Part shown: in pieces, positions 1,452 through 63,258 of the stretch | Layout of the letters: each line of letters starts with the position of its first letter | Numbering within the stretch: position 1 is the stretch's first letter | Sequence record: NC_052652.1 | Origin: Escherichia phage vB_EcoM_PHB05 | Length of the DNA stretch: 64,000 bases | Direction: 5' to 3' (one strand) | Translations under genes and position numbers: made by a program | Notes under the pieces: generated by a model | Told to the model about the DNA's origin: nothing | What the model saw: the letters and a program-made list of their open reading frames with translations, nothing else | Database searches by the model: none

Positions 1452-2858
1452 ATGGCAACTTTTCGTGATAAGGTAGTTTCCGTAACCCTTACCTACGGTG
1501 CTACTTCAATTAGTGAAACACAGTTTGATATCCCTCTAATTCTTACAGGGCATAACGTTACTGGCAATCTTGTAGATTATTTCACTTCTTCAGACGCACT
1601 TCTGCAAGCAGGTTTTGGCACTGCCGACCCAGCTTATAAAATGGCAAAACTACTATTTGACGGTCTGTTCGCACCAGAACAAGTTATCGTCGGTAAGCGT
1701 GATGTTTCTAAAACAACTCTAACTCCAGTAGTTGAAGATAGTGCAACTTACGTTATCACTATTAAAGCAAATTCAAAAAGCAAGGACTTCAAGTTTGTTG
1801 CCGATGATACTGCAACTGCTCAAGAGATTGTTGTTGGTTTAACAGAAATGATCAACGCAGACATGGTGTATAAAGAATTCTTCACTGTGTCAAACGATGG
1901 TAGTGTTATCACTGTAACCCCAGTTGCAGGTAAATACGCTACTATGGATAGTTCAGGATTCACAACTAAAGTAGAATATGCAAATGATATCTTAGAAGAT
2001 ATTGCTAAAATTGCAGATTATGAAAACAGTTGGTTCTGGTTACTATCTGATTCTCACGCAGAACAAGATATTATCGATCTAGCAGGTTATGTAGAAGAGC
2101 ACGATAAAGTGTATTTCTTCTCTACCTCGCAACCAGGTGTTCTAACTAAAGAAGAAGATAACATTCTAGAACGCTTAGGTGATATGGGCTACAATAACAC
2201 TTGTATGGCATTGTGGATGACTAACGCTGATACAGTGTTCCCAGAGGCTGCTGTAGTTGGTTCTATCTGCTCTGCAACACCAGGTACTACTACCCTGCAT
2301 GGTAAAACCCTTGTTGGTATCGAGATTGAAAAACTTGGTCAGACAGCAGAAAACTTTATCGTTCAACAGAATGGTAATATTTACCGTAAAGAACACGGTG
2401 TTCTGTTCTACCGTGATGGTTTCATGGTTAGTGGTTTCTATGTTGACTATGTGGTACACGCTCTGTGGTTCAAAGCTCGCGTAGAAGAATCTCTGTTTGC
2501 TCTATTCAAACAGCAATCTATGCTTGGTAGTGGTGTTAGAGCAACTTCTGCTGGTCTTGCTTTGATTCGTCAGGCTGTTACTGCAAACCCAATCCAAGTA
2601 GGTATTAACAATGGTTCTATTGCCAATGAGGTAGTAACTTCAGAGGAAACAGGACTTCTGGTAAGCCTTAAACCTACTATCTATATCCCATCTCGTGCAG
2701 ATATGACTGATGCTCAAATCAATGCACGTTTGGTTGATGGTATGGTTATTGAATACGTATATGCTGGATTCTTCCACTATGTTAAAGTGCAGGTAAACGT
2801 TCTGACGAACCGCACTGCAAATAGCCAGAATTCCAATAGCTCTACTGTATCTTCATAA
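1452..2858 (+). CDS. Tail sheath protein (putative)
   Basis: 468 aa; position directly before 159-aa tube-like gene, chaperone and tape measure, the canonical contractile-tail order. Confidence 0.5.
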   Translation: MATFRDKVVSVTLTYGATSISETQFDIPLILTGHNVTGNLVDYFTSSDALLQAGFGTADPAYKMAKLLFDGLFAPEQVIVGKRDVSKTTLTPVVEDSATYVITIKANSKSKDFKFVADDTATAQEIVVGLTEMINADMVYKEFFTVSNDGSVITVTPVAGKYATMDSSGFTTKVEYANDILEDIAKIADYENSWFWLLSDSHAEQDIIDLAGYVEEHDKVYFFSTSQPGVLTKEEDNILERLGDMGYNNTCMALWMTNADTVFPEAAVVGSICSATPGTTTLHGKTLVGIEIEKLGQTAENFIVQQNGNIYRKEHGVLFYRDGFMVSGFYVDYVVHALWFKARVEESLFALFKQQSMLGSGVRATSAGLALIRQAVTANPIQVGINNGSIANEVVTSEETGLLVSLKPTIYIPSRADMTDAQINARLVDGMVIEYVYAGFFHYVKVQVNVLTNRTANSQNSNSSTVSS

Positions 2859-2866
2859 TTAAAAGC

Positions 2867-2884
2867 AGCGGGGGCAACCCCGCT
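2867..2884 (+). terminator. GC-rich stem-loop after sheath gene (agcgggg-N4-ccccgct)
   Basis: Perfect 7-bp inverted repeat just after stop at 2858; weak T-tract, so possibly an attenuator or RNA-stability element. Confidence 0.3.
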
Positions 2885-2916
2885 TATATGAAAAGTAGTA
2901 TAAAAGGAGATCCACT

Positions 2917-3396
2917 TTGGATAAAATGCTTACTGGCGTAATGGCCTATGATCCTTCTCAAGTAATCCTGTCTTTGGGTGGTTGGGAACCTTGGGGTTTC
3001 GCCGCAGATACCAAAATTGTTATTAACAAAACTAACGATATCATCAACCCATATTCAGGTACTGATGGTGACGTTTCCTTGGCGCTTAGTCGTAACCGTT
3101 TAGGTACGCTAACAATGTCACTGCAACGTACTTCCCCAGCAAACGAAGTTCTTGCTGCTTATGCACAAACGATGTATTCTACTCGTCAAGTAGCATTTAG
3201 CGTATATCTAGAAGACCCTCGCGGATATTATATCAGCACAATTGGTTGGATTCAAAGCCAACCGGACGATACTATTGGTGAAACTATTCAAGAAAACCAA
3301 TGGGTGATCGGTCTTAAAGATGCAAGCCTACTTCGTTCTACTGTAGGTGTTGGTGTTAACGCACTTAACTCTATTAGTGCTCTAACTATTCAGTAA
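2917..3396 (+). CDS. Tail tube protein (putative)
   Basis: 159 aa, immediately downstream of sheath candidate; AAGGAG RBS; TTG start. Confidence 0.45.
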   Translation: MDKMLTGVMAYDPSQVILSLGGWEPWGFAADTKIVINKTNDIINPYSGTDGDVSLALSRNRLGTLTMSLQRTSPANEVLAAYAQTMYSTRQVAFSVYLEDPRGYYISTIGWIQSQPDDTIGETIQENQWVIGLKDASLLRSTVGVGVNALNSISALTIQ

Positions 3397-3400
3397 TAAA

Positions 3401-3427
3401 AAGGGCAGAAATGCCCTTTATTTTTAA
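3401..3427 (+). terminator. Rho-independent terminator
   Basis: aagggca-gaaa-tgccctt hairpin followed by T-tract. Confidence 0.5.
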
Positions 3428-3441
3428 AGAGAGAGGAAATA

Positions 3442-3924
3442 ATGGAACAACAAAAAGATAATACTATTGCAAAATTTGCTCGTCCAGAAGTAATGGTTGA
3501 AATTGATCTGGATGAAGGACGCAGTGTAAAATTTAGAGTTCTCAAGTGGAGTCCAACTAAAGTTTTTGAAAGGATTCCAGAACTAGGTAGTGTACTGGCT
3601 GTTCCTATGACAATGTATAATACTGCTCTTATGTCAGCAGACGAAGATCTAGAAGCTCGTATTGCTATGGCACTGATCCAATTATTCAGTGGTCTGGAAG
3701 AAAAAAACTTAGCTGCATTCTTACGTAAAATTTTAGATGAAGTTTACACAGAAGCAGGACACAGTGTTTCCGATAATTTTGATGAATTGTTTTTTGCTCA
3801 CCCAGAATTAGTTGTTGACTTAGCTGCAAAAGTTCTTGAGGTGAACTATGCCCCTTTTTTCAAACGAGGTTTCGGAAAACTGTTGACCCAATTTCAAGGA
3901 ATAGAGACTCTAGCGAAGAGTTAA
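3442..3924 (+). CDS. Tail assembly chaperone (putative)
   Basis: 160-aa acidic protein between tube and tape measure genes. Confidence 0.4.
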   Translation: MEQQKDNTIAKFARPEVMVEIDLDEGRSVKFRVLKWSPTKVFERIPELGSVLAVPMTMYNTALMSADEDLEARIAMALIQLFSGLEEKNLAAFLRKILDEVYTEAGHSVSDNFDELFFAHPELVVDLAAKVLEVNYAPFFKRGFGKLLTQFQGIETLAKS

Positions 3925-3971
3925 GTCCGGCAATTAAATCAGCAATTGAAATTGCCTCACAAACCCTTAGC

Positions 3972-4199
3972 TTGACATGGTATGAAGTAATTCTTTGTAA
4001 GGTAATTAAGAATACCTCCGAAACCTTGTCCTCGTTAGATAATTATGGTGTAGATTATCTACTTAAAATTTATGAATATTTAACATTCGAAGACTATGTA
4101 CAAGATCTTCACGTTAAAGATGCGGATATTAAACGTGGTCAACAGAGAACAATAAGAGAACTGGATACGGCTATGAAAAAATTAATTCCAGATTCATAA
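3972..4199 (+). CDS. Hypothetical protein; possible frameshift-accessed chaperone extension
   Basis: 75-aa ORF in a different frame directly before tape measure gene. Confidence 0.3.
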   Translation: MTWYEVILCKVIKNTSETLSSLDNYGVDYLLKIYEYLTFEDYVQDLHVKDADIKRGQQRTIRELDTAMKKLIPDS

Positions 4200-60005: not shown

Positions 60006-62780
60006 TTAGTTTACCAGTTTATTTATATCTGGTAAAAGATTTATTTCACCTAAGAAATCACCTTCACCTTCCTCTAGCCAACTCTCATATGCTTGTGCAT
60101 GATTATAGTTACCATCAAAAGAATCTGCAACAAATTTTTCTACAGTTTTTCGAGATGTGCCAGCGCCAAATACACCAAGTTTAATACCATTGATCGGTAA
60201 AGTGGTGCTTGTGGGTACTTTCTCTGTTGCAACACGGTTGATATCTATAATCTCCTGTACGGTTGTATTCCATTGTAAGCATTTAACACAACGGGTGTGC
60301 GCTACATACAGTAGGTTTCGCTCTGCCTCTTCTAGTCCTACCCATTCACCAGTCTTTTTATCATAGTTGGAAGGAAAATCATTAGCAACAATAACCTGAT
60401 CCCACTCCAAACCTTTAGACTTATGTGCTGTAGTCAGTGTGACTTTTGCTGTAGGAGAATTTCTATGCGTTCTAAGTGTATGTGCTATAGTGTTTGCCTT
60501 ACCAGAAACTACAATGTTTAACAAGCGTTTAGCATCTGGATCAGCCTCTGCACACTCAACAAATTCATTCCAGTCTGCGTAAGGTAATACAGTTTCATGT
60601 TTTACTTTCTCAATATCTCCTCTCCGAAGAGCATTAACACTATCTACCATAGAGATAAAATCCCTGGTATCTACGTTAATAATAATTTCTTCCCCATCTG
60701 CAATACGATCCATTGCCTCCATAAGCAAGGTTAAATTCTTGCGAAAGATGATAGTGTAAGGTTTTGTATAGTCTACAACATCTGATTTGTAGCTACCTAC
60801 TACAGTATCAAAGCCTTTACCAACCAAAGGATGACGCAAAGGTTCTTTATCACTTAAAATCATATTCGCAATGTTTGCCACTTTGGGGCCAAAACGGAAG
60901 CAAGCAGTTAATGGAAGCTCTGCCCCATACTTAGCTGTTTCAATCATCATATTAGAGCTACCTCTAAATTGATAAATGCAGTTATGGCTAAGAATTTCAT
61001 TGCCAAAGAAGTTAGCAGTATCCTCTACTTCAATATCATAATAGATACCATCACTATCTACAATGTCCACAATTTCTTCTGCCGTTACAGTATCACCATC
61101 TTTTACCAACACAGACATGCCTTTAAACAAACCCGCTGCCGGAATTAAATTATATTTGGCAGTGTTCACAGAGGACATGCATTCTTTTAAAGATGCAAAC
61201 GGAACTATTTCAAGGATCTTTTGTGCAAAACTCAATGCTTCACGATAAGAATTGAAATATTTACGTACACGGTAACGACCTTCCAATTTAGCAACACTTA
61301 CACTTACACCTGCTTCAATGAGTGAAGCATAGATTGGCATTTCACTTTCTGTCCACTCAAAGCTAACTTGTGTTCCTTTACAACCTTGTGCTCGCAAAGT
61401 CACTGTTAACATTTTTCTTGCATCTACTGTACAATTGATGCTGTGCCAATGTGGATAAGCAAAATGATAATCTTTATCCTCTAAAAGTTTAAAACCATTT
61501 TGTCCGAATTGTTCAAAGATATTGTTGATCCTTTCTTGATTAATACCGCGTGAACTTGCCTCAAATACACAAGTAGGAATGCCATATTGTAAACTGTATG
61601 CCATTTCTTTTTCCATAGCAGCTTCACGGTTTTCAACAATATCCAACACCCACAACTTCTGTGCTTTTTCAGAACGTGTACGTTGCCCCAGTTTAGAAAA
61701 ACCTTCTTTATCATCGAATTTGTTAGTGATCCCTACTCGGAAACCTAAATCTTTTCTCCACATTAGGTATACCACCATCTGATCATCTTTCAGAACATAA
61801 GGTGAAGCCCAAATACGATGGTTATGTGTCATATCTAAAGTCTTACCTTTAGCAGTAATAATATTCCTACCTTTTGTACGTGTAGATAAAGTTTTATTTG
61901 TTACTTTTCTAAATGTAACTTTACCGTTAGAATAAGACTCTACCTTATCACCGATTTGCAGGTCTTTCATTGTAACCTGACCATTTTCGGTATTAAGTAC
62001 CGTGTTTTCTGACACACATTGGAATTCATCACCAACTACCACAATTTGTTTGGCAGATTTAGCATTCCGCAGAATAGACAAGAATGCAGGGTTAACATCC
62101 TGGAATTCATCCCCAAAAATAATGTCATAACCAAGATCAGCACCAGACAATTCAAACAATTTTACATAGGTGTCATGCGTCATCAAAGTATCTGTGTTAG
62201 GGTCAATGCGCTCTCGCCACAATTGTTTTGCATACTTAACTACTTCTGTAATTAGTTTGTGTTCGTTAATACCTTTTCTTTTAATATCTGCAAGATGTAC
62301 ACTAGGAAAATGTTTACGGCTGATAAAAGGATCATCCGAAAATTCAAACTTACCTACGGTTTGCTTGATCATTAAACCAATCATAGCACGAGTTAAAAGT
62401 GTTTTCCCTCGTTTATCAATAAGATTATTAATCTTAAATTTCTTTGCTATCTCACTACCTGTACCTGCAACGTTAACATACTGTCCTTCTGGTCGTGACA
62501 GTTTTGCACGTAAACGATGATCCAGGAATTGATAGCAAATGGAATGCAATGTACGGCATTCTACATTTGGTGGCATCTTACGCCGTGCTTCTTCTGCCAT
62601 GCTTTTATTGAAAGCTAAGTAAAGAATGCGATCTTCTGTACTGTTAGCCAGCAAATAAAGTGTTGACGTTTTTCCTGATCCAGATTTAGCTTGGATAGTT
62701 AAAAACCGATGATCTGGAAAAGCCTCCTTAATAGCTGTTTGCTCTTCTGTTGGAGTAAAACTCAACTCTTTCTTAGCCAT
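60006..62780 (-). CDS. UvrD/Rep-like SF1 DNA helicase interrupted by an intein
   Basis: Walker A AKSGSGKT, Walker B DEFQD; motif III split as VVVGDEFQ / intein / CIYQFRGSS; start set to MAKKEL (62780). Confidence 0.7.
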   Translation of the reverse strand: MAKKELSFTPTEEQTAIKEAFPDHRFLTIQAKSGSGKTSTLYLLANSTEDRILYLAFNKSMAEEARRKMPPNVECRTLHSICYQFLDHRLRAKLSRPEGQYVNVAGTGSEIAKKFKINNLIDKRGKTLLTRAMIGLMIKQTVGKFEFSDDPFISRKHFPSVHLADIKRKGINEHKLITEVVKYAKQLWRERIDPNTDTLMTHDTYVKLFELSGADLGYDIIFGDEFQDVNPAFLSILRNAKSAKQIVVVGDEFQCVSENTVLNTENGQVTMKDLQIGDKVESYSNGKVTFRKVTNKTLSTRTKGRNIITAKGKTLDMTHNHRIWASPYVLKDDQMVVYLMWRKDLGFRVGITNKFDDKEGFSKLGQRTRSEKAQKLWVLDIVENREAAMEKEMAYSLQYGIPTCVFEASSRGINQERINNIFEQFGQNGFKLLEDKDYHFAYPHWHSINCTVDARKMLTVTLRAQGCKGTQVSFEWTESEMPIYASLIEAGVSVSVAKLEGRYRVRKYFNSYREALSFAQKILEIVPFASLKECMSSVNTAKYNLIPAAGLFKGMSVLVKDGDTVTAEEIVDIVDSDGIYYDIEVEDTANFFGNEILSHNCIYQFRGSSNMMIETAKYGAELPLTACFRFGPKVANIANMILSDKEPLRHPLVGKGFDTVVGSYKSDVVDYTKPYTIIFRKNLTLLMEAMDRIADGEEIIINVDTRDFISMVDSVNALRRGDIEKVKHETVLPYADWNEFVECAEADPDAKRLLNIVVSGKANTIAHTLRTHRNSPTAKVTLTTAHKSKGLEWDQVIVANDFPSNYDKKTGEWVGLEEAERNLLYVAHTRCVKCLQWNTTVQEIIDINRVATEKVPTSTTLPINGIKLGVFGAGTSRKTVEKFVADSFDGNYNHAQAYESWLEEGEGDFLGEINLLPDINKLVN
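60981..62018 (-). other. Intein (346 aa) inserted in helicase motif III
   Basis: Begins with Cys (CVSENTVL), ends ...EILSHN followed by +1 Cys; excising it restores the canonical GDxxQxIYxFRG motif. Confidence 0.6.
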
Positions 62781-62781
62781 T

Positions 62782-63258
62782 TCAACCTCTCTTAATTTGT
62801 TTAACAAGCATAGGAACAAAATCTCGTTTTAAAATTTGTTCAATAATATGATCAGGTAGCTGTTGGAAATTATAATTAAACGCTACTGTCTCACCTTTAG
62901 GTGTTTCTACCCGCACATATAGCATGTTACGAAGTTTATCCACTTGTGCTGTATATTCTAAACCACGTAATTGATGCATTGCAAACATCAAATCCTCAGT
63001 TTCAGTTTGGAATCTATCCCTTGTTTGCATCAAGGATAAGGCAAAAGGTAGATTTTCCCTAAGAGCCACCTTCTTAGGCACTAGTGAAGGGAAATACTCC
63101 CCAATAACTTCCTGTGTAAGCTGAATACACTCTTTTTCAAGCTGGTTTTGTTCCTTGAGTTCACAAACACTTTTTTGTAAAGTGTTAACCTCTTTTTGCA
63201 AAGCTGCTAGTTGAGCACTTAACTTTCTTTTTTGATTACGACCGAAACGTTTAGACAT
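62782..63258 (-). CDS. Hypothetical coiled-coil protein
   Basis: 158-aa ORF. Confidence 0.4.
   Translation of the reverse strand: MSKRFGRNQKRKLSAQLAALQKEVNTLQKSVCELKEQNQLEKECIQLTQEVIGEYFPSLVPKKVALRENLPFALSLMQTRDRFQTETEDLMFAMHQLRGLEYTAQVDKLRNMLYVRVETPKGETVAFNYNFQQLPDHIIEQILKRDFVPMLVKQIKRG

Follow-up and report, generated by a model that had tools for sequence, protein, structure and literature searches.

The helicase gene and its intein

The window, a stretch of 64,000 nucleotides from Escherichia phage vB_EcoM_PHB05 (NC_052652.1), carries on its minus strand a gene for a UvrD/Rep-like helicase of superfamily 1 (SF1), and a segment of 346 codons with the features of an intein lies within motif III of this helicase. 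Judged by its sequence, the window is that of a phi92-like coliphage of the genus Justusliebigvirus (Stephanstirmvirinae). The DNA of the helicase gene is 100% identical to that of Escherichia phage pEC-M2929-1AR.1 and 97-99% identical to that of phi92, VEcB, muut, JohannJBalmer and other members of the genus. The remaining content of the window, which includes tailspike genes, a family-A DNA polymerase, a primase-helicase and NrdD, is consistent with this identity. The gene and its parts are as follows.

60006..62780, minus strand: helicase precursor gene, UvrD/Rep-like SF1, with the intein inside; 924 codons plus stop (from Pfam, phrog_1967 and the annotation in relatives)
62019..62780, minus strand: N-extein, residues 1-254, with Walker A, motif II and the first half of motif III (VVVGDEFQ)
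62667-62690, minus strand: Walker A, AKSGSGKT, in the N-extein
62097-62111, minus strand: motif II, DEFQD, residues 224-228, 26 residues upstream of motif III
60981..62018, minus strand: intein, 346 amino acids, with Cys1, block B Thr64-x-x-His67, block F Asp328 and His345-Asn346
61794..62018, minus strand: N-terminal part of the Hint domain, intein residues 1-75, blocks A and B
60981..61148, minus strand: C-terminal part of the Hint domain, intein residues 291-346, blocks F and G
60006..60980, minus strand: C-extein, 324 amino acids plus stop, which opens with Cys+1 and the second half of motif III (CIYQFRGSS) and continues into the UvrD_C domains

The open reading frame defined mechanically is slightly longer (60006-62819, 937 codons). 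It opens at a TTG at 62819, 13 codons before the ATG at 62780, and its first codons overlap with the final part of the gene upstream (62782-63258). Relatives are annotated as starting at the ATG at 62780 (MAKKELS...), which directly adjoins the stop codon of that gene and is likely to be the true start.

The helicase reading frame matches the UvrD-helicase (PF00580) and UvrD_C (PF13361) profiles and the phage 'DNA helicase' family phrog_1967 (E = 6.7e-164). The hallmarks of the UvrD/Rep group (SF1A) are all present in the exteins, namely AKSGSGKT, DEFQD, GDEFQ/CIYQFRG and the UvrD_C region, where the slash marks the insertion point. By the standard definitions of SF1 helicase motifs, GDEFQ/CIYQFRG is motif III (GDxxQ/xIYxFRG). 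An earlier note, made from the letters alone, had proposed that an intein of 346 amino acids at 60981-62018 splits motif III of a UvrD-like helicase. Its coordinates are correct, as is its placing of the insert in that motif; the strand, which it left unstated, is the minus strand. The nearest solved structure by sequence to the spliced helicase is human F-box DNA helicase 1 (FBH1; 9xzj_F, E = 1.2e-31), and bacterial UvrD is a far weaker match (E about 5e-6).

On the minus strand, 60981-62018 is an open segment of 346 codons that runs from CVSENTVLNT to NFFGNEILSHN, with IVVVGDEFQ before it and CIYQFRGSSNMM after it. The plus-strand reading of the same interval is rejected, as it has stops throughout. 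The residues expected of a splicing domain are all in place: Cys1, T64-H65-N66-H67 in block B, Asp328, His345-Asn346 and Cys+1. The boundaries proposed earlier, Cys directly after GDEFQ and His-Asn followed by Cys, agree with the intein-less alleles described below. The TIGR01443 (intein_Cterm) profile scores 23.3 bits on the full helicase reading frame and 20.0 bits on the insert alone (cutoff 15.6), and the Hint module PF01079 matches the insert alone with E = 5.1e-7. A 22-sequence alignment of relatives shows no variation at C1, H67, H345 and N346, and at least 90% conservation of D328. Among 86 full-length relatives, position 1 is always Cys, the C-terminal end is HN in 78 and SN in eight, and the +1 position is occupied by Ser (71 relatives), Cys (14) or Thr (one). 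The predicted structure model of the intein (predicted local distance difference test score, pLDDT, 91.2) has the Hint fold. By these sequence features the insert is a class-1 intein of the Hint superfamily, for which we infer splicing activity.

The intein itself is already known and annotated in GenBank. The same element, in the same gene, site and genus, occurs in the BASEL phages JohannJBalmer (Bas62, MZ501084) and PaulScherrer (MZ501100) and in phage vB_EcoM_ZYD (PQ110661), where it is 97-98% identical at the protein level to the window intein. These near-identical genomes annotate an 'intein-containing UvrD/Rep family helicase precursor' with an intein mat_peptide. In JohannJBalmer, the deposited mat_peptide (MZ501084, 3001-4041) has 347 codons and includes the +1 Cys. 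Since intein-less helicases of 578 amino acids have Ser at that position, the sequence comparison assigns the Cys to the C-extein and gives an intein of 346 amino acids. In the BASEL paper, the passage on inteins reports precise intein identification by comparative annotation and is silent on the endonuclease domain, on mobility footprints and on family distribution (PMC8594841). Most other records, including those of phi92 and pEC-M2929-1AR.1, label the gene only 'DNA helicase' or 'hypothetical protein', so that the annotation of phi92-like helicase genes could be corrected. A 2024 paper states that no coliphage inteins have been reported (PMC11162368).

Translation of the gene would yield a precursor of 924 amino acids (about 105 kDa), in which intein residues ~1-75 and ~291-346 would together form the Hint domain. 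Splicing would begin with an N-S acyl shift at Cys1, after which the N-extein would be transferred to Cys+1. Asn346 would then cyclise, aided by His345, Thr64/His67 and Asp328, and an S-N shift would complete the reaction. The predicted products are a helicase of 578 amino acids (~66 kDa) with motif III restored (GDEFQ-CIYQFRG), in which the junction peptide should read VVVGDEFQCIYQFR, and a free intein of 346 amino acids (~40 kDa).

Besides being selfish, the intein might serve as a conditional switch, sensitive to redox state or stress through Cys1/Cys+1, with the helicase inactive until splicing, a role that has been proposed for ATPase-motif inteins. Such a role is unlikely. The site inside an ATPase motif fits the clustering reported by Novikova et al. 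in 2016, who list 16 bacterial UvrD inteins (PMC4760082), and the +1 residue here is Cys in place of the Ser of most relatives; however, the intein is dispensable, as about 37% of close relatives lack it.

Three features of the surrounding sequence may be added. Base composition is uninformative, since the GC content of the intein (0.34-0.39) is similar to that of its flanks. No other intein is seen in the ten other open reading frames of at least 590 amino acids in the window, and the window contains no tRNA genes.

Intein-less relatives and marks of homing

The helicase DNA is at least 95% identical in 54 phage records, of which about 34 have the intein and about 20 do not. The intein-minus records lack exactly 1038 bp, and their match covers 62% of the query in two pieces that span 1776 bp (2814 minus 1038). 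Removal of the intein gives a protein of 578 amino acids, which is the exact length of the helicase in the intein-less phages alia and KKE7M. The alignment of the exteins with intein-less homologs that the earlier note had proposed thus yields homologs of the same length as the spliced product. In alia and KKE7M the junction reads GDEYQ-S-IYQFRG. The restored GDEFQ-CIYQFRGSS predicted in that note is borne out, as the junction is contiguous both in the intein-less homologs and in the alignment with human FBH1 (9xzj_F), which is gapless across it. Splicing in silico lifts the PF00580 score from 45.5 to 66.1 bits and lets the match reach the end of the profile; the spliced protein scores 43.1 bits with PF13361.

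These comparisons bear on the alternative that the segment is an integral, non-splicing domain and that the unspliced protein of 924 amino acids is the functional form. Homologs carrying the segment in this way had been named beforehand as the observation that would speak against an intein; what is found is the opposite, a precise presence/absence polymorphism. The precise absence, the rise in score and the contiguous FBH1 alignment dispose of the integral-domain alternative, which is extremely improbable on other grounds as well. The segment interrupts an invariant motif, is missing in its exact extent from the roughly 20 intein-minus relatives that are otherwise 97-99% identical, and has the Hint fold with every catalytic residue. 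Moreover, homologous inserts occur in unrelated hosts, for example in a DNA methylase of a Streptococcus suis phage, and at other helicase motifs.

Four GenBank records labelled 'Campylobacter phage' (C. jejuni), MG065639, MG065645, MG065656 and MG065689, are about 97% identical to the window over the helicase gene and intein. Their Campylobacter host label appears doubtful.

The alleles with and without the intein differ mostly in the immediate vicinity of the insertion point. Within 1737 bp of extein sequence, 26 of the 35 nucleotide differences from KKE7M lie between -34 and +50 (binomial P = 4e-27), and 26 of the 51 differences from alia fall in the same 85 bp (binomial P = 6e-21). Seven of the differences alter the encoded residue, one of them replacing Ser by Cys at +1, and the others are synonymous. 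The two flanks of the cluster, defined by comparison of intein-plus and intein-less Justusliebigvirus alleles, are as follows.

62019..62052, minus strand: 5' flank of the substitution cluster (-34..-1 nucleotides)
60930..60980, minus strand: 3' flank of the substitution cluster (0..+50 nucleotides), which includes the synonymous recoding of CAGTTCCGTGGAAGC to CAATTTAGAGGTAGC

The cluster is interpreted as a co-conversion tract from the ancestral donor. Directly 3' of the site, both intein-less alleles under comparison (one per genus) read CAGTTCCGTGGAAGC, and the intein-bearing alleles carry CAATTTAGAGGTAGC in its place. On this sequence evidence, CAGTTCCGTGGAAGC is the likely core of the endonuclease target, and the cut itself is perhaps also 3' of the insertion point.

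Phage DIJ07P2 of the genus Phapecoctavirus (OZ035771, ~1525-4159) appears to record a second, independent event. On both sides its helicase is 95-100% identical to that of the intein-less Phapecoctavirus nieznany, and its intein is 97% identical in DNA to the window intein. Next to the intein on its 3' side, a tract of about 274 bp shares 98-100% of its sequence with Justusliebigvirus and only 63-72% with nieznany, and on the 5' side the Phapecoctavirus markers are kept to within 3 nucleotides of the junction. In sequence, the pattern is that of break-initiated gene conversion with a strongly asymmetric tract, and it looks like recent intergeneric homing in which the asymmetry is extreme. Both a sporadic distribution among close relatives and the co-conversion of flanking markers, which characterise homing elements, are found here.

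In the proposed homing cycle, the ~215-residue central insert of the intein would be a homing endonuclease. During mixed infection it would cut the intein-less helicase allele of the co-infecting phage near the motif III codons, probably just 3' of the insertion point, and recombinational repair would copy the intein and the adjacent flank into the cut allele. A different reading of the same distribution is that of a splicing intein whose endonuclease is dead, or whose central insert never had nuclease activity and is, for example, a DNA-binding or structural one, the patchiness being due to ordinary recombination and occasional precise loss. Many inteins do have decayed endonucleases, and recombination among phi92-like phages is frequent. 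This reading is nevertheless very unlikely: in DIJ07P2 a 97%-identical intein sits in a helicase with flanks that are only 63-85% identical, and one crossover is at most 3 nucleotides from the site. Two further points against a dead endonuclease, from conservation and from free-standing relatives, are taken up below.

That the insert is a class-1, full-length and mobile intein in the UvrD-like helicase gene of a phi92-like coliphage is given a probability of roughly 0.9. Several points weigh on the other side. The Intein_splicing profile PF14890 matches the insert with E = 2.7e-8 and 34.2 bits, just under its gathering score of 35.8, and TIGR01445 is slightly below its cutoff (20.7-21.6 bits against 24.5). 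No splicing or cleavage experiment on the window intein protein was found in the openly searchable literature. The substitution cluster, for its part, could in principle reflect old recombination independent of the intein's own nuclease.

For the mobile intein, phages with and without the element that are 97-99% identical, together with a fresh intergeneric transfer, amount to a natural homing experiment in E. coli phages that are tractable in the laboratory.

The central domain and its possible likeness to GIY-YIG nucleases

The region between the two parts of the Hint domain, put at about 190 amino acids in the earlier note, is larger, with ~215 amino acids (residues ~76-290), and consists of two subdomains.

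61419..61793, minus strand: central subdomain 1, intein residues 76-200, putative catalytic module of the endonuclease (from conservation and the model)
61149..61418, minus strand: central subdomain 2, intein residues 201-290, predicted alpha/beta module (from the model and alignment)

In the model, subdomain 1 has a beta-hairpin (81-88/92-98), a short helix (111-116), a strand (121-128), a long helix (131-145) and two more helices. Subdomain 2 is an alpha/beta unit (residues 203-282) for which fold matches are weak and generic (eIF1/SUI1-like, TolR-like), and which is presumed to bind DNA. It is absent from the shorter relatives in SPO1, the S. suis phage and RYC.

Residues ~76-290 of the window protein and 21 relatives give nothing above noise in Pfam, NCBIfam and PHROGs, and a profile of the central domain has no match among PDB sequences at E <= 10. 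A search for homologous proteins with the intein gave two matches only, too few for modelling. By contrast with these, a full HMMER scan of 1.84 billion cluster representatives (clusters at 50% identity) finds 676 that match the central domain at E <= 1e-3, 67 of them at E <= 1e-30. In nearly all of the 150 matches listed, the domain is embedded in proteins of 800-2500 amino acids. Wherever the host protein was read it is a UvrD-like helicase, and so it is, judged by the flanks, for the 86 full-length copies. About 78 of these 86 copies are at the same motif III site, and a few are in or beside motif II or at an 'ANxLIxHN/' site. By sequence, the central domain belongs to a widespread, unclassified family that has no Pfam, NCBIfam or PDB match.

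Across 163 copies of the domain clustered at 50% identity, the near-invariant residues are Y84, M86, G92, R94, G96, R113, E117, W123, E138, P148 and P189. Conservation reaches 99% for Y84 and R94, 100% for G96 and W123, 98% for R113 and E138, and 96% for E117. The pattern indicates a maintained active site and not a decaying insert, and such strong conservation of polar residues tells against the dead-endonuclease reading, as degenerate endonucleases lose such residues.

One of the nearest known counterparts is the intein of the UvrD-like helicase of Bacillus phage SPO1 (gp34.33) and of CampHawk, which both annotate the allelic intein (SPO1 record FJ230960; PMC3868849). These phages belong to the Herelleviridae and have a Gram-positive host. 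The insertion point is identical (GDDDQ/C...HN/SMYSFRGA), with Ser as the +1 residue. The central domain is homologous, with about 30% identity over residues ~83-195, and shares Y84, M86, R94, G96, R113, W123 and E138 with that of the window. The SPO1/CampHawk intein, however, has only 275 amino acids, lacks the second central subdomain (~201-290) and is about 24% identical overall.

The nature of the nuclease is less clear than the presence of the intein. The earlier note had seen no obvious LAGLIDADG or HNH motif, and none is found in the central region in Pfam and NCBIfam searches, either as LAGLIDADG helices (blocks C and E) or as the HNH beta-beta-alpha-metal motif; the predicted fold also differs. 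The central domain is unlike those of the canonical LAGLIDADG inteins (PI-SceI, PI-PfuI, Mtu RecA) and of HNH inteins in having none of their motifs. HNH, His-Cys box, PD-(D/E)xK/Vsr and LAGLIDADG chemistries are rejected, as His, Asp, Lys and Asn are all missing from the invariant residues.

We lean slightly towards a divergent nuclease of GIY-YIG type in which the Tyr of 'YIG' is replaced by Arg94. The order of elements in the model, beta1-beta2-alpha-beta3-alpha, resembles the core of GIY-YIG enzymes such as I-TevI and the Seg proteins (PF01541), where a beta-hairpin is followed by a helix, a strand and a helix, the three strands forming a sheet that packs against the helices. In both, strand 1 contains a Tyr and strand 2 x-V-G, and an Arg and a Glu lie in the first and the long helix, respectively; of the motif residues, all but the second Tyr (first Tyr, Gly, Arg and Glu) agree with the GIY-YIG pattern in the window domain. 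V-V-Y84 is followed after 9 residues by R94-V-G96, where the GIY-YIG norm is motifs 10-11 residues apart. Y84 and G96 are separated by 12 residues, compared with 13 in I-TevI, and E138 comes 10 residues after strand 3, like Glu75 in I-TevI. The two groups are also alike in their modular layout of catalytic and DNA-binding parts, in their occurrence in phages, in having free-standing versions beside their targets and in asymmetric co-conversion. They differ in that there is no detectable sequence similarity, that the second Tyr is Arg, that strand 2 and the Arg helix are joined by a longer loop in the window domain and that this domain is embedded in a Hint domain.

Structural searches are suggestive at most. 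With Foldseek against BFVD, the top three matches are helicase or methylase proteins (27-100% identity) that are read as intein relatives, and ~15 of the next 47 are annotated as GIY-YIG, intron or homing endonucleases (probability up to 0.96, E 0.01-0.2). Weak fold matches include five independent GIY-YIG structures.

Four results count against the GIY-YIG assignment. The second tyrosine of the motif is absent, its place being taken by Arg94. None of 22 family members, the window domain included, matches the Pfam GIY-YIG profiles (PF01541 or its clan) at E <= 10. A comparison by hhalign with an I-TevI-family profile gives a probability of 2%; this profile was built from I-TevI and 14 relatives (12 diverse phage GIY-YIG domains collected by tblastn and two near I-TevI relatives), a homolog search with the I-TevI catalytic domain having given nine near-identical matches of too low diversity for a profile. 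Searches by hmmsearch between the central domain and GIY-YIG are not significant in either direction (best E 0.014, in a database of 163).

It is possible, though not what we favour, that the intein is real but its central nuclease has another or a new fold, the likeness to GIY-YIG being that of a generic small alpha/beta topology. The missing sequence-level link and the Arg in place of the 'YIG' Tyr agree with this, as does the G96-R113 spacing of 17 residues, compared with 8 in I-TevI. On the other hand, the near-invariant polar set of Tyr, Arg, Arg, Glu and Glu, with no His, Asp or Lys, fits GIY-YIG, and GIY-YIG structures and annotated viral GIY-YIG proteins recur among the weak matches. 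In the best local alignment from hhalign, at that probability of 2%, the register coincides with the catalytic Glu: E138 falls on Glu75 of I-TevI, and R94-V-G96 on Y17-V-G19.

GIY-YIG enzymes cleave DNA in a metal-dependent way and typically leave 2-nucleotide 3' overhangs. If the window domain is truly of this type, it would fill a long-noted gap, the absence of GIY-YIG enzymes from described inteins, and would provide a nuclease scaffold that is new, monomeric and modular and whose free-standing relatives record the passage from intein to free-standing gene. Dunin-Horkawicz et al. stated in 2006 that no GIY-YIG members are found in inteins (PMC1564403), and the enzymes have been described as not known in inteins (PMC2677866). 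A 2025 preprint gives LAGLIDADG, HNH, VSR-like and EndoVII-like as the only intein endonucleases (10.1101/2025.01.02.630785). No description of the central endonuclease domain was found in the openly searchable literature, subscription journals lying outside the search.

That the domain cuts DNA, where it cuts and that it is of GIY-YIG type are all points that we infer. The chances appear evenly balanced that the central domain founds an undescribed family of intein-borne endonucleases, divergent GIY-YIG enzymes that specialise in helicase motif III and are able to become free-standing. With the intein itself already annotated, the novelty that remains lies in this unclassified, possibly GIY-YIG-like family and in its free-standing derivatives.

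Free-standing relatives and other inteins

Six short cluster representatives (P0002, P0031, P0032, P0049, P0051 and P0140; 265-350 amino acids) align over most of the intein. They have no Cys1, and their ends read ...IHE, ...LHS, ...VPTI and the like instead of His-Asn. Five of the six genes lie 11-65 bp from an intact gene for a UvrD-like helicase of 478-499 amino acids, four downstream of it and one upstream. The five loci, each comprising the free-standing gene and the helicase, are as follows.

L024, 425-2929: free-standing gene and helicase
L028, 1455-4002: free-standing gene and helicase
L030, 1531-4014: free-standing gene and helicase
L031, 1538-4053: free-standing gene and helicase
L027, 4001-6300: free-standing gene and helicase

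Motif III of the adjoining helicases reads GDxxQ-A-IYxFRxA, with Ala at +1 in all five, a small sample. Ala at +1 cannot support splicing. The simplest reading of these sequences is that, where splicing is impossible, the endonuclease persists as a homing gene of its own in which the Hint scaffold is vestigial; this suggests a transition from intein to free-standing homing gene. Survival in this form gives independent support to a mobility function of the central domain. It also tells against a dead endonuclease, since persistence beside helicases after the loss of all splicing residues is understandable only under selection of the central domain itself for mobility.

At L027, a canonical GIY-YIG gene (PF01541; 6306-7112, minus strand) is located directly downstream of the helicase, on the opposite strand. 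This helicase is thus flanked by two putative homing genes, the free-standing intein-like gene being upstream.

Some helicases carry more than one insert. The orthologous helicase of Klebsiella phage KP13-16 (OP617741, 527-4123) has 1198 amino acids and apparently two inteins. The insert in its Walker A motif is of LAGLIDADG type (AGTGK/AQPL...VTHN/TSTL) and apparently starts with Ala, and that in motif III is a 60%-identical homolog of the window intein. Giant UvrD-like helicases, represented by the metagenomic proteins P0004, P0005, P0006 and P0008 (1872-2536 amino acids) and by L009 from a 485-kb uncultured phage (LR745208), have two to three inteins of the same family each. Their sites are motif II (DEAQDLNK/C), motif III and 'ANxLIxHN/', and P0008 also holds a LAGLIDADG-type intein in the P-loop. 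The related intein of Vibrio phage RYC (AP014858, 1903-4557) has a central domain of the same type as that of the window intein, and its insertion point is shifted 3 residues downstream within motif III (GDKYQQLY/C...THN/CFRGS).

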